Source of the DNA: Escherichia phage vB_EcoM_PTE-Eco15
Direction: 5' to 3' (one strand)
Sequence record: PQ352352.2
Length of the DNA: 64,000 nucleotides
Position 1 is the stretch's first letter. Every line of letters starts with the position of its first letter. The notes below the pieces were generated by a model, which had not been told where the DNA came from, ran no database searches, and was given only the letters and a program-made list of their open reading frames with translations. The translations under genes were made by a program, and so were the position numbers. This document shows, piece by piece, positions 42,949-45,852 of the stretch.

Positions 42949-45852
42949 TTATGCTAAACGAACGATATAGTTAAAAGCAATGTTTTTAACCGTGTTTTCT
43001 GTATTACCTGTACTATTTACAGTGATAGTATGTCCGTGCGCACCCAATGCCACAGTGTGTGCATGGGCACCAATGTAAACCGTGTGATTATGCTGACCAA
43101 TATCAACAGTATGGGCGTGCGCCCCGGCAGAGCTTGACACCTGGTCGGTTCCTGATACCTGTACGCGTTGTTTACCCCCGGTGGAGTCACCACCGTAACG
43201 ACCACCGACAGTGTGTGTATGCGCTCCCGTATTGTTTGTCGTTTTTGTGCCGTGGTTAAACGTGCTGACTGTTTTTGTCCCGTAATCAAACGAACTGGTT
43301 GTTTTAGTACCCAAATCAGTATTAGATGCAGAAGCACTATGATTATGAGACTTAATACCATCGGCTTCTGCACTTAACACAGCTCGACCGCTTGGTTTAC
43401 CTTTAATAGTCTGCCCGCGCATATCTGGAATAACACCGCTAGGATATGCAACAGCTAACTTTGGATATGCGGACTTATCAAAGGTCTGACCTTCCATTAT
43501 GGCATAACCTTCAGGAGGTGTATCAGTAGGCCAAGGAATCGGAGCACCAATTGGGTAACTCGAGACAATATCCGTCTTAAGGTTATTTATTGTGGTATTC
43601 AAGTTAGCAAAATTACCATCACCACCCGTGATATTACCATCAGTACCGAATCGAGCATTTCCGACTTTAAGAGGTTTAATAATACTGACAGAATCATAGT
43701 TTAATGCAATACCATGTGAATATGTGTAGCTGTGCATACGAACGGCGTCGCCGCCATCGCCAATACCTATATACCATTTCGGAACATCTGCTTTACGTCC
43801 TTGAATTACGTTAGAAGACTCTTGTGTTGGGGCATTTATTCTAATAGCATCTGATGCCATATTTACTGTTATGCGTTGATTAGCAGTAGTTCCAGCCACT
43901 TCTACTTTAAATCTACCTCTACAGATATCTACATCATGATCCATGGAAACTTTACCATTACTTAATGTAATATAGAACGGACGTAAATTAGAAATACCAC
44001 CTGATTCACCAGCATTCTGTGGAGTTGGAATAATATAAAGCTTATCTTCAGAACGACGGAAAATAGCCCCGTATTCAGCATTCCAAATTCTTAATGCATC
44101 AGCTGTTCCGCCAATTTTAACTTGTCCAGTAATAGAAGAACCACCTTGGACAAACAAACCATTAGACATGGTAACATTACCGACTAAAGTGCTTAATCCA
44201 TTAACTTTAAAACTTCCGTCAGTAATAATACTTCCTCTAGCATTAACTTGTCCATTGAACTGGGTTACAACAGGCCCAGTAGTTTCAGAGCCACTTGGAG
44301 CCACACGCTGTGAATAAAAATAATATCCTTGTCCATCAGCTACTTCAAAAACCGTTTCACGATTACGATCGCCAGATGCGTTAAATGAATTACCCCACGC
44401 TTTAATAGATACATAACTTTTATTCTGACCTGCGCGAGTACCACCAGCCCACAGTATAGTTTTAGTGCCATCTGCTGCTGTAGGAGCGTCAAGTTGAATA
44501 CCGTCGGGTCTAGCACCAGTAAGAACTAATCCGTTATCAAATTTAATTCTTTGTATTGAAGATACTGTTCCATTAGCATAAAACTGTACGTTATTAGAGC
44601 CAGTTACCAATTTTAAAATACCAGGGTTAATTTCCATACCTTCCTGCGTATTAATGTTGGTTTGGCCTTTACCACGGAAATAATGGGAAAATTTACCGCC
44701 AGAATTATATCCAATGTGGGTTTGACCATCGCCTGCGTTATTCACATCTGCCTGAGTTTGAACAGACAAGAGAGTAGCGTTCGTTCCAGGCATTGTCCAG
44801 GTTCCGCCTTGGTCCTCGGAACGACCAAATATACCTTTACGAGTACTACGGAAACTGTCAGGAGTAATAGAAGCAACAGAATATCCGCCGCCAACTAAAT
44901 CATAAACACCTTGCTTAATGTATTTTAAACCGGTTACAGTATCACCGAGAACAAGATACTTATCACCCATTATGCCGGTATTGCCATAATCGCTAGACGG
45001 AAAACCTGAAGTAAATGTACCTAATGCAAGGCTATTGCGGCCAGCTATTCTACCATCGTTACGAATACCATACTGTTTTGACTGTGGGGTATTTCCGGTC
45101 CACCATGACATTTCATCGGCTTGCCCAGTCTGAGCAGTACAAAGCTCATGCCACATGGTTCCACCCGATTTAGCACGAACTTTACGAAGATAGTTTACTC
45201 CGTTGGTTTCACCGGTTCCAGGATAAACATACTGAACTAATGATTGAGAATCGTACTGTCCAAAGGCTTTAGAATCATGATTAATTAAATTGACACTAAT
45301 AGTTGGTGTACTAATAGAAGTTAAAGCCGTCAATTTACGCGCTTGAAATATACCACCATCAGTAGAAATGAAATGAAATTCTGAATTTTGAGCTCCTGAT
45401 GCGGTTCCTTGACGAACGCGCATTGTAATTACGCCTTCATTTTCAGACTGTGGTTTTGAATATAAAACGCCACGTTCTGAGCCATTTGTATTTTCAAACC
45501 AAAGATGAGCATTTGAAGTATCATTCGATGCTCTTGTATAAAATGACCCGCGTGAAGCACGAAAATGTGGTGCTTCAATAGTGTTTCCAGCAGTAATGCT
45601 TCCTGATGTAGAAAAATTTCCAAAATTATTTAACGGTCCATTGACTCGTAAAGTCCCGTCAATGGTTACATTTCCACTAATGCTACCACCGGCAGAAATG
45701 CTTAAGTCAATGATATTTCCTGTATCATCTTTAGTAAAAATTGTTCTATCTTTTAAGTTTATAGCCAATTCACCTTCGGCTAATACTGAAGCAGCAGGAC
45801 GTGCACCTGCGGTTTTGCTTCTTTTAAATTGTATTTGTTTTAAAGTAGCCAT
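42949..45852 (-). CDS. 37: Long tail fibre distal subunit gp37 (receptor-binding)
   Basis: 967 aa; C-terminal His-x-His repeats (AHTHTV, AHAHTV, HNHTV, HGHTI) typical of the T4 gp37 tip. Confidence 0.9.

Follow-up and report, generated by a model that had tools for sequence, protein, structure and literature searches.

The long tail fibre locus of Escherichia phage vB_EcoM_PTE-Eco15 (record PQ352352.2; the window analysed comprises 64,000 nucleotides) raises the question whether its distal subunit gp37 ends in a receptor-binding tip different from that of T4, from where such a tip was acquired and which receptor it may recognise. According to the original prediction gp37 comprises 967 aa as compared to about 1026 aa in T4, carries His-x-His (HxH) repeats in its C-terminal region and is accompanied by a T4-type gp38 chaperone, while its receptor-binding tip, presumed to differ in length from that of T4, was regarded as the likely host-range determinant possibly recognising another receptor. 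Two genes are concerned:

42949..45852, minus strand: gp37, distal subunit of the long tail fibre, 967 aa plus stop (open reading frame list, Pfam, synteny)
42370..42921, minus strand: gp38, tail-fibre assembly chaperone of the T4 type, 183 aa (identity to T4, phrog_105)

The identity of gp37 follows from its position in the gp34-gp35-gp36-gp37-gp38-t block together with the homology of its N-terminal part to T4, and the protein matches the Pfam families gp37_trimer, Collar and Gp34_trimer. The gene order gp35-gp36-gp37-gp38-t is that of T4, the neighbouring proteins share 98.7% (gp35), 91.9% (gp36), 100% (gp38) and 99.1% (t) of their amino acids with their T4 counterparts, and from gp34 through gp37 residue ~609 the DNA is 90.6% identical to T4. 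Over its whole length gp37 shares 67.8% amino acid identity with T4 gp37. The gp38 gene starts 27 nt past the gp37 stop; its product is identical to T4 gp38 in all 183 residues, with 539 of 552 nucleotides identical and all 13 differences synonymous, and matches phrog_105 (“tail fiber assembly”, E = 6e-45).

The predicted lengths proved correct, since the open reading frame encodes 967 aa and T4 gp37 (NC_000866) 1026 aa. Most of this difference of 59 aa (47 aa) is explained by a segment of the shaft:

43640..44023, minus strand: shaft segment, residues ~610-737, without DNA homology to T4 (blastn against T4)

A blastn search of this segment against T4 gave no match, and its DNA is 92-94% identical in the Tequatroviruses SHBML-50-1, PhiZZ6, JLBYU31 and APCEc01; it is a common Tequatrovirus allele different from that of T4. 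The segment lies outside the span 42949-43500 for which a tip of different length had been claimed, and the claim therefore holds only for the remaining 12 aa, by which the needle is shorter.

The span 42949-43500 encodes residues 785-967, which correspond to the collar and the needle, and residues 739-967 align to the solved T4 tip 2XGF (E = 1.1e-93). With the limits of the domains D10 and D11 taken from the T4 structure paper (PMC6957217), the following features were assigned, the HxH motifs by alignment to T4 and translation check:

43351..43563, minus strand: D10 collar, first part, residues 764-834, T4 811-881 (Pfam Collar PF07484 at 769-816)
43003..43350, minus strand: D11 needle, residues 835-950, T4 882-1009 (alignments to 2XGF and T4, translation check)
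42952..43002, minus strand: D10 collar, C-terminal strand, residues 951-967, T4 1010-1026 (identical to T4)
43339..43347, minus strand: HxH motif 1 (H836-N-H838)
43240..43299, minus strand: tandem 10-aa repeat of two units in the ascending stem (direct repeat D2, alignments)
43213..43221, minus strand: HxH motif 2 (H878-T-H880), the last before the tip loop
43111..43119, minus strand: HxH motif 3 (H912), a “His box”
43084..43092, minus strand: HxH motif 4 (H921), a “His box”
43057..43065, minus strand: HxH motif 5 (H930), a “His box”
43030..43038, minus strand: HxH motif 6 (H939), a “His box”

The PF07484 match, the alignment to 2XGF and the repeated HxH motifs together indicate a collar with an inserted needle. 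Within the collar a stretch of ~110 nt (residues ~786-814) shows zero mismatches to T4, and at the C-terminus residues 947-966 are 100% identical to T4 in nucleotides and amino acids, the DNA of the last 27 codons (residues 941-967) being ~100% that of T4. The needle comprises 116 aa as compared to 128 aa in T4, and its shortfall is distributed over the ascending stem (-4), the tip loop (-3) and the descending stem (-5). The His-x-His repeats that had been claimed were located as six H-x-H motifs between H836 and H939, as compared to seven layers in the same region of T4; motifs 3-6 (43030..43119) are evenly spaced by 9 residues (27 nt) and constitute a four-copy 20-nt direct repeat family, while the second unit of the 10-aa repeat occupies the site of the extra HxH of T4 (GGHTHS).

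In T4 seven Fe sites were found in the needle and the contact residues of the tip have been mapped (PMC6957217). By analogy to T4 three gp37 chains would intertwine into the needle, aided by gp38 and presumably gp57A, and the needle is predicted to be a homotrimer with an octahedrally coordinated metal ion at each HxH layer. Since each of the six layers would coordinate one ion, six ions are expected instead of seven. An AlphaFold2 model of the C-terminal 233 aa, computed as a single chain with an alignment of 44 sequences, reached a mean pLDDT of 53.7 and a pTM of 0.18 only, which is to be expected if one chain of an intertwined trimer is modelled, and was uninformative.

Taken together with the comparisons given below, gp37 is presumed with a probability of about 0.8 to be a working mosaic, namely a T4-type distal long-tail-fibre subunit with a needle cassette acquired by exchange with temperate phages. 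Its T4-like parts would be the N-terminal ~600 residues, the collar (D10) and the last ~27 residues, and the needle would contain:

43075..43329, minus strand: putatively exchanged cassette, residues ~842-926, needle stem and tip loop of the six-HxH type (DNA identity, GC3)
43120..43212, minus strand: tip loop, 31 aa, presumed receptor-contact surface, T4 932-965 (allele comparison, translation check)

The tip loop of 31 aa (34 aa in T4) represents a different allele. When the T4 tip residues that contact OmpC or LPS (PMC6957217) are projected onto the alignment, S947, Y949 and I951 fall into a gap, K945 is replaced by Q and Y953 by V, and the glycines G938, G942 and G943 are the only contact residues aligned. 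Compared to the temperate consensus of the same allele the loop carries two substitutions, with T instead of I at position 891 and D instead of N or E at position 903. As in T4, the glycine-rich tip loops would form a distal knob with which the phage initially and reversibly touches the host surface. Since the OmpC and LPS contact residues of T4 are mostly absent, a shift in fine specificity relative to T4 is plausible from the sequence.

Regarding the receptor itself, the view that the distal tip determines the host range and may recognise another receptor is favoured by the different allele, but divergence alone gives no receptor inference, and the receptors documented for its relatives are OmpC or LPS-core glucose (OmpC and LPS for T4, LPS Glc-II for phiNP; PMC9659904). 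In general, phages with tips of the T4 type continue to bind OmpC or the LPS core. The sequence alone cannot name the receptor; the most likely candidate appears to be a sugar of the LPS core, an OmpC-type porin of E. coli or Salmonella, or both, recognised with a fine specificity unlike that of T4.

It is conceivable, although we would only tentatively propose it, that the phage still uses the receptor of T4, OmpC with the LPS core, and that the cassette merely adjusts the range of OmpC or LPS variants accepted. The receptor may equal that of T4 because OmpC-using T4-type phages carry, and thus tolerate, very different tip loops, and the BASEL study places T4-type receptor-binding proteins with a C-terminal extension in the OmpC-targeting class (PMC8594841); furthermore, the glycine-rich character of the tip and the three aligned glycines are kept. 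However, no counterpart exists here for the OmpC-specific patch of T4 (K945, I951, Y953) or for S947 and Y949, which belong to the shared patch, phiNP binds LPS Glc-II and not a porin although it possesses the same six-HxH scaffold (PMC9659904), and the cassette occurs mostly in temperate phages without documented receptors.

If gp37 is the presumed mosaic, receptor specificity would follow the cassette and not T4, and the host range is predicted to track the fibres of temperate phages rather than T4, which would be useful for choosing or engineering therapeutic phages. A more far-reaching version, which seems rather unlikely, assumes that the cassette confers the specificity of P2-, lambda- and Mu-like prophages of Escherichia and Salmonella (e.g. 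for a conserved LPS-core epitope, not OmpC) and permits cross-genus adsorption, I891T and N903D being adaptive host-range mutations that followed the swap.

No receptor data were found in the literature on Lv5cm, STYP1, Chuche, Chlobot and P24A7b. Several other routes to a receptor were rejected. The receptor of phiNP (LPS Glc-II) was not transferred by homology, the six-HxH scaffold being common and the tip-loop allele different; glycosyl- or acetyltransferase genes beside the Tfa gene in some temperate copies, considered as a hint at LPS, are inconsistent across the carriers of the cassette; and Salmonella phage PSA5-1 and the Yersinia fPS phages were dismissed as receptor comparators, possessing an S16-type and a T2-type fibre, respectively.

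The evidence for an exchange, which the original prediction had not mentioned, comes from the DNA of the cassette. Near-identity of the tip to that of T4, which the original prediction had named as the finding that would speak against it, was looked for by alignment and is absent: loop and adjacent stem (residues 842-911) share only 51% DNA identity with T4, as compared to 93-94% with Lv5cm, the P2-like STYP1, the EC2 prophage and plasmid p1919D3-2. In comparisons with these four, 20-codon windows reach 100%, and the genes matching at 93-94% include tail-fibre genes from temperate phages as well as from phage-bearing plasmids. The collar DNA is only 65-84% identical to these four. The crossovers can be placed in intervals, not at points, namely at residues ~842-852 and ~932-946, resulting in a cassette size of about 70-85 codons. 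Its GC3 amounts to 0.447, as compared to 0.21-0.29 in the rest of gp37, and matches the 0.42-0.49 of the temperate copies.

A history without any horizontal exchange, in which point mutations and small deletions between the His boxes shortened the needle of a T4-like ancestor, is highly improbable. His-box repeats are described, in the account of Tetart 1996 cited in PMC3157838, to mediate duplications and deletions in g37 of T4, and 27-nt periodic repeats exist in gp37 here as well; such a history would nevertheless have to account for the higher DNA identity to unrelated temperate-phage genes than to T4, for the bordering stretches of ~100% identity to T4 and for the rise in GC3 from ~0.25 to 0.45. 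An assembly chimera of reads from a T4-like phage and a prophage is scarcely credible. The crossovers do lie in motifs common to both groups, where assemblers can switch templates, and an exact-sequence look-up among about 15 billion proteins did not yield this gp37. However, Lv5cm, an independent T4-like phage in culture, carries this cassette at the same site, the cassette differs by ~6% of its nucleotides from every temperate copy found and bears two private substitutions, no break occurs in the reading frame and the flanking sequences run collinear with T4.

Copies of the cassette with 88-95% aa identity form the ends of fibres whose bodies are P2 gpH-like (PF12571), lambda Stf-like (PF08400) or placed in a Mu-like context. 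The temperate fibres with this cassette were located on viral contigs of 25-45 kb and ~80-90 kb, none of them T4-sized, and numerous prophage proteins from E. coli, E. marmotae, E. albertii and Salmonella contain the cassette as well. The best copies on E. coli chromosomes or plasmids reach 86-90% identity over 370-400 nt and 93-94% within the cassette core; in the donor search no copy closer than ~94% nucleotide identity was detected among the copies compared. A scaffold of six HxH motifs and a needle of 131-136 aa is usual among the 120 nearest proteins, which fall into at least 10 families of tip-loop alleles, and the six-HxH needle cassette circulates among temperate phages of Escherichia, Salmonella and Citrobacter. 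Based on GC3 and distribution only, the direction of the transfer was presumably from temperate to T4-like phages. Since synonymous codon differences in the cassette outnumber the non-synonymous ones (9-10 vs 3-4), it is under purifying selection.

Reports of T-even and temperate phages trading tail-fibre tips at conserved motifs date back to the 1990s, and a swapped tip module is an ordinary, well-documented route of phage host-range change. The 3' end of g37 and g38 of T4 itself derive from a lambda-like phage, and exchange takes place at conserved motifs (PMC3157838). The cassette may have entered by homologous recombination in conserved flanks, the SASAS motif upstream and the GAHxHT “His boxes” downstream. 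Being of a kind already known, the event opens no new question; it provides, however, a clear-cut natural example of a very narrow module swap (~75-85 codons), in which the T4 collar and T4 gp38 were kept while a needle normally served by Tfa-type chaperones was imported. The swap thus supports a compatibility of chaperone and collar across the whole T4/lambda receptor-binding family.

Compared to the T4 gp37 tip (PDB 2XGF; D10, D11), the protein agrees in gene position, in a collar with stretches of 100% DNA identity, in a needle with HxH layers, in the C-terminal 27 residues and in an identical gp38 protein. It differs in the number of HxH motifs (six, not seven) and the needle length (116 aa, not 128 aa), in a second copy of the 10-aa repeat where T4 has a second ascending-strand HxH, and in a tip loop of 31 aa, not 34 aa, whose sequence is unrelated and lacks most OmpC and LPS contact residues.

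The T4/lambda family of enteric receptor-binding proteins (Magaziner and Salmond 2022) comprises more than 200 members, including lambda Stf, phiNP ORF6, SEN5 and SHBML-50-1, of which only the specificity region diverges and which always have a gp38/Tfa gene next to them (PMC9659904). In accordance with this family the distal ~215 aa are conserved and diverge only within the specificity region, which corresponds to T4 932-965; in an alignment of 44 relatives the columns of the collar, the HxH motifs and the C-terminus are invariant and the tip varies. The needle has the six-HxH scaffold, which predominates within the family. The gp38 gene directly downstream encodes a homologue of the PF02413 Tfa of STYP1 (29% identity over the full length, E = 7e-20). 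Unlike the family members compared, among them T4 and phiNP (GYTTGAQPSGTRGDWDSDGLRNTVQ...), gp37 carries a different tip-loop allele, and its chaperone belongs to the T4 branch of the chaperone family, whereas the closest copies of the cassette occur together with the Tfa (PF02413) branch.

Fibres of the T2/T6/S16 type share the locus and the role in the virion. Their gp38 is, however, a glycine-rich adhesin of ~260 aa with hypervariable loops that stays on the fibre, and their gp37 ends in a cleaved intramolecular chaperone; this type was rejected for the present phage, since gp38 is the 183-aa chaperone of T4 and gp37 ends in the T4 collar strand. The sequences thus support a T4-type arrangement in which gp37 would bear its own C-terminal receptor-binding needle.

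The closest parallel is Salmonella phage Lv5cm (MZ150757, Tequatrovirus), the only other T4-like phage found with the cassette. Its tip is 94% identical in amino acids, its DNA 93.8% identical in residues 842-911 and its gp38 96% identical; in contrast, its gp37 comprises 928 aa, its tip loop has I891 and N903 (T and D here), and its flanks share only ~84-88% DNA identity, and therefore the two phages carry the cassette in different gp37 backgrounds. Because Lv5cm is a cultured phage, the combination of this cassette with a T4-type gp38 is viable.

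The minus strand of the window carries the T4 late-gene block gp35, gp36, gp37, gp38 and t, with the receptor-binding fibre protein and its chaperone encoded as follows:

42949..45852 (-), gp37, open reading frame of 967 aa
42370-42921 (-), gp38, 183 aa, protein identical to T4 gp38

Residues 785-967 of gp37 are encoded by 42949-43500, and a search of solved structures aligned the T4 receptor-binding tip (2XGF, chain residues 2-242) to residues 739-967 (E = 1.1e-93). In a global alignment gp37 shares 67.8% amino acid identity with its T4 counterpart. The original prediction that it is shorter than in T4 was confirmed (967 versus 1026 aa, the latter read from NC_000866), as were the His-x-His (HxH) repeats in the C-terminal region, six of which were found, and the T4-type gp38 chaperone. 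The length difference had, however, been attributed to the tip, and this attribution proved wrong. Based on the DNA match to T4 the region falls into five segments.

Segments of the tail-fibre region and their blastn match to T4
52500-44024, gp34 to gp37 residue ~609: 90.6%
44023-43640, residues ~610-737 in the shaft: unmatched
43639-43298, collar: 85%
43297-43075, core of the needle: unmatched
43074-41000, from the gp37 end onwards, including gp38 and t: 97.6%

The offset between both gp37 proteins has reached 47 residues at the collar start and grows to 59 by the C-terminus, so that the shaft segment, outside 42949-43500, accounts for 47 of the 59 aa by which this gp37 is shorter. This shaft segment is nothing out of the ordinary and occurs with 92-94% DNA identity in many Tequatroviruses, including SHBML-50-1, PhiZZ6, JLBYU31 and APCEc01. 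The needle itself is 12 aa shorter than that of T4 (ascending stem -4, tip loop -3, descending stem -5). Past the first ~50 residues, gp37 residues ~50-200 (window ~45250-45700, -) are also strongly diverged from T4, forming one more mosaic segment towards the gp36-gp37 junction; for gp36 the identity to T4 is just 91.9%.

The predicted divergence of the tip from T4 holds. A codon alignment of the last 235 gp37 residues with T4, the T4-like Salmonella phage Lv5cm, the P2-like Salmonella phage STYP1, the E. coli EC2 prophage and p1919D3-2, a 95-kb E. coli plasmid with phage tail genes, indicates that the needle is an exchanged cassette within a sharp mosaic.

DNA identity of distal gp37 segments to T4 and to the four other relatives
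Collar, residues ~786-814: no mismatch to T4; 65-84% to the others (measured over 793-841)
Cassette core, residues 842-911: 51% to T4; 93-94% to the others, 100% in some 20-codon windows
C-terminus, residues 941-967: no mismatch to T4; below the cassette identity to the others

The upstream crossover lies in the interval of residues ~842-852, in a SASAS... motif conserved across all aligned sequences, and the downstream crossover in the interval ~932-946, in the GAHxHT "His boxes", which are visible as a 27-nt periodic direct repeat. The codon differences within the cassette are mostly synonymous (9-10 versus 3-4 non-synonymous), therefore arguing for purifying selection and no decay. It seems unlikely that the mosaic is an assembly chimera, since this arrangement recurs independently in Lv5cm and some substitutions are private to the cassette. 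The GC3 of this exchanged cassette (0.447 versus 0.21-0.29 in the other gp37 segments; 0.42-0.49 in the temperate copies) points to a temperate, enterobacterial-like source, which we only infer, as GC is raised by codons for glycine, alanine and histidine as well. The search for a donor gave no sequence closer than ~94% at the nucleotide level. A 118-aa open reading frame (window 43017-43373, -) was rejected as a gene, being an out-of-frame shadow within the GC-richer needle-coding region.

The nearest proteins in a large protein collection were prophage tail fibres of E. coli, E. marmotae, E. albertii, Salmonella and Shigella (84-91% identity over the 233-aa query), whose tip loop differs from that of the window at two positions only; the exact gp37 protein was absent from the 15-billion-protein collection. 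All contigs with an IMG/VR match at 88-95% measured 25-45 kb or ~80-90 kb; none was of T4 size. The cassette-bearing fibres have quite different bodies, namely P2 gpH-like (PF12571), lambda Stf-like (PF08400), a 327-aa fibre adjoining a Mu Gp48-like gene (PF10076) and a 744-aa type. The sole T4-like carrier found among cultured phages was Lv5cm (94% amino acid identity, ~86% nucleotide identity over 700 nt). Its gp37 background is unlike that of the window and its gp38 is 96% identical; Lv5cm thus demonstrates that the cassette can function together with a collar and gp38 of the T4 type.

Several observations concern the temperate carriers. In five IMG/VR contigs (L006 3399-4268, also L007, L013, L014 and L018) a 289-aa macro-domain protein (PF01661) is encoded between the tail-fibre and Tfa genes; its C-terminal end, ...TIGAHSHT, resembles what is left of a His box from a tail fibre. 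One 392-aa relative (P0017) combines a Mu-type N-terminal DNA-binding region (PF02316, precomputed domains) with a tail-fibre collar and a related tip-loop variant, and probably arose from an invertible segment, from mis-assembly or from gene calling. In p1919D3-2 (L004) the cassette-bearing tail-fibre gene (2148-4382) is annotated as three pseudogene pieces; its distal part is nevertheless in frame through to ...NYIVRLA. Directly after Tfa, several but not all of the temperate genomes with a fibre of this family encode a GT4 glycosyltransferase, a GlmU-like acetyltransferase or a serine acetyltransferase:

L014 4897-6039 (-), surface-sugar modification
L004 5910-7596 (-), surface-sugar modification
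L086 2496-3050 (-), surface-sugar modification

These neighbours, absent from some carriers, may hint at an LPS receptor or at lysogenic conversion.

Of the 552 nt of the gp38 gene, 13 deviate from T4 g38, all 13 synonymous (100% protein identity); the chaperone is thus unchanged even though it has to fold a needle from another cassette. Conservation extends to the hairpin GGGGCTTCGGCCCC that separates gp37 and gp38. The Tfa proteins of the temperate copies share 29% identity with gp38 (E = 7e-20; phrog_105) and both belong to one chaperone family, in line with the published picture of a single assembly-protein family with two branches (PMC9659904).

In T4 the collar (D10, 811-881 and 1010-1026) bears a trimeric needle (D11, 882-1009), in which seven iron ions are held by HxH histidines, and the receptor patches lie on the tip subdomain, 932-959: an LPS patch (I933, N937, G938), an OmpC patch (K945, I951, Y953) and a patch for both (G940, G942, G943, S947, Y949) (PMC6957217). 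By homology, gp37 of the window would adopt this collar/needle architecture with six metal layers, its HxH motifs lying at H836, H878, H912, H921, H930 and H939, compared with seven in T4 (883, 915, 929, 966, 980, 989, 998). Where the ascending strand of T4 has its second HxH (GGHTHS), the window has the second copy of a tandem 10-aa repeat (window 43240-43299, -); H867 within this repeat is probably no metal ligand, since it is Y in some relatives. The descending strand lacks the FGTSS of T4, so that its four HxH are evenly spaced at 9 residues. AlphaFold2 modelling of the single chain gave low confidence (pLDDT 53.7), and the model was set aside. Among the 120 nearest proteins a scaffold of six HxH with a needle of 131-136 aa predominates, bearing tip loops of 30-35 aa from at least ten unrelated allele families, and the seven HxH and 144 aa of T4 are unusual; hence the "short" tip is the common form.

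Of the T4 contact residues only three glycines have an aligned counterpart in the tip loop, while S947, Y949 and I951 fall into a gap, K945 is replaced by Q and Y953 by V. With most contact residues lacking a counterpart, the contact surface differs from that of T4. The receptor could still be like that of T4, considering that T4-type fibres have been described as an OmpC-targeting class (PMC8594841) and that extensive tip variation exists already among 17 OmpC-specific Straboviridae phages (preprint 10.64898/2026.04.02.716166). However, the OmpC patch of T4 is absent from gp37, and phiNP, also with a six-HxH scaffold but yet another tip-loop allele, uses LPS Glc-II (PMC9659904). No receptor data were found in the literature on Lv5cm and other cassette carriers. 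Taken together, the receptor is likely to be an LPS-core sugar and/or an OmpC-type porin (probability about 0.7), and the odds are roughly even that the fine specificity is detectably unlike that of T4. The original interpretation of the tip is therefore partly supported.

The biology of the gp37 tip is ordinary modular tail-fibre evolution. Distal tail-fibre gene exchange between T-even and temperate phages and the swapping of adhesin specificity by recombination at conserved motifs are both long established (Tetart 1996, 1998; George 1983; Hendrix and Duda 1992; all as cited in PMC3157838), and a 2022 catalogue covers the T4/lambda receptor-binding family together with its paired assembly gene (PMC9659904). 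All sequence-testable features of the T4-type and T4/lambda receptor-binding families were found in gp37 of the window, whereas those of the T2/S16 type were not. Specific to this gp37 are the particular allele, a cassette that is rare in T4-like phages, and how tight the swap is, both flanks being identical to T4 in DNA.
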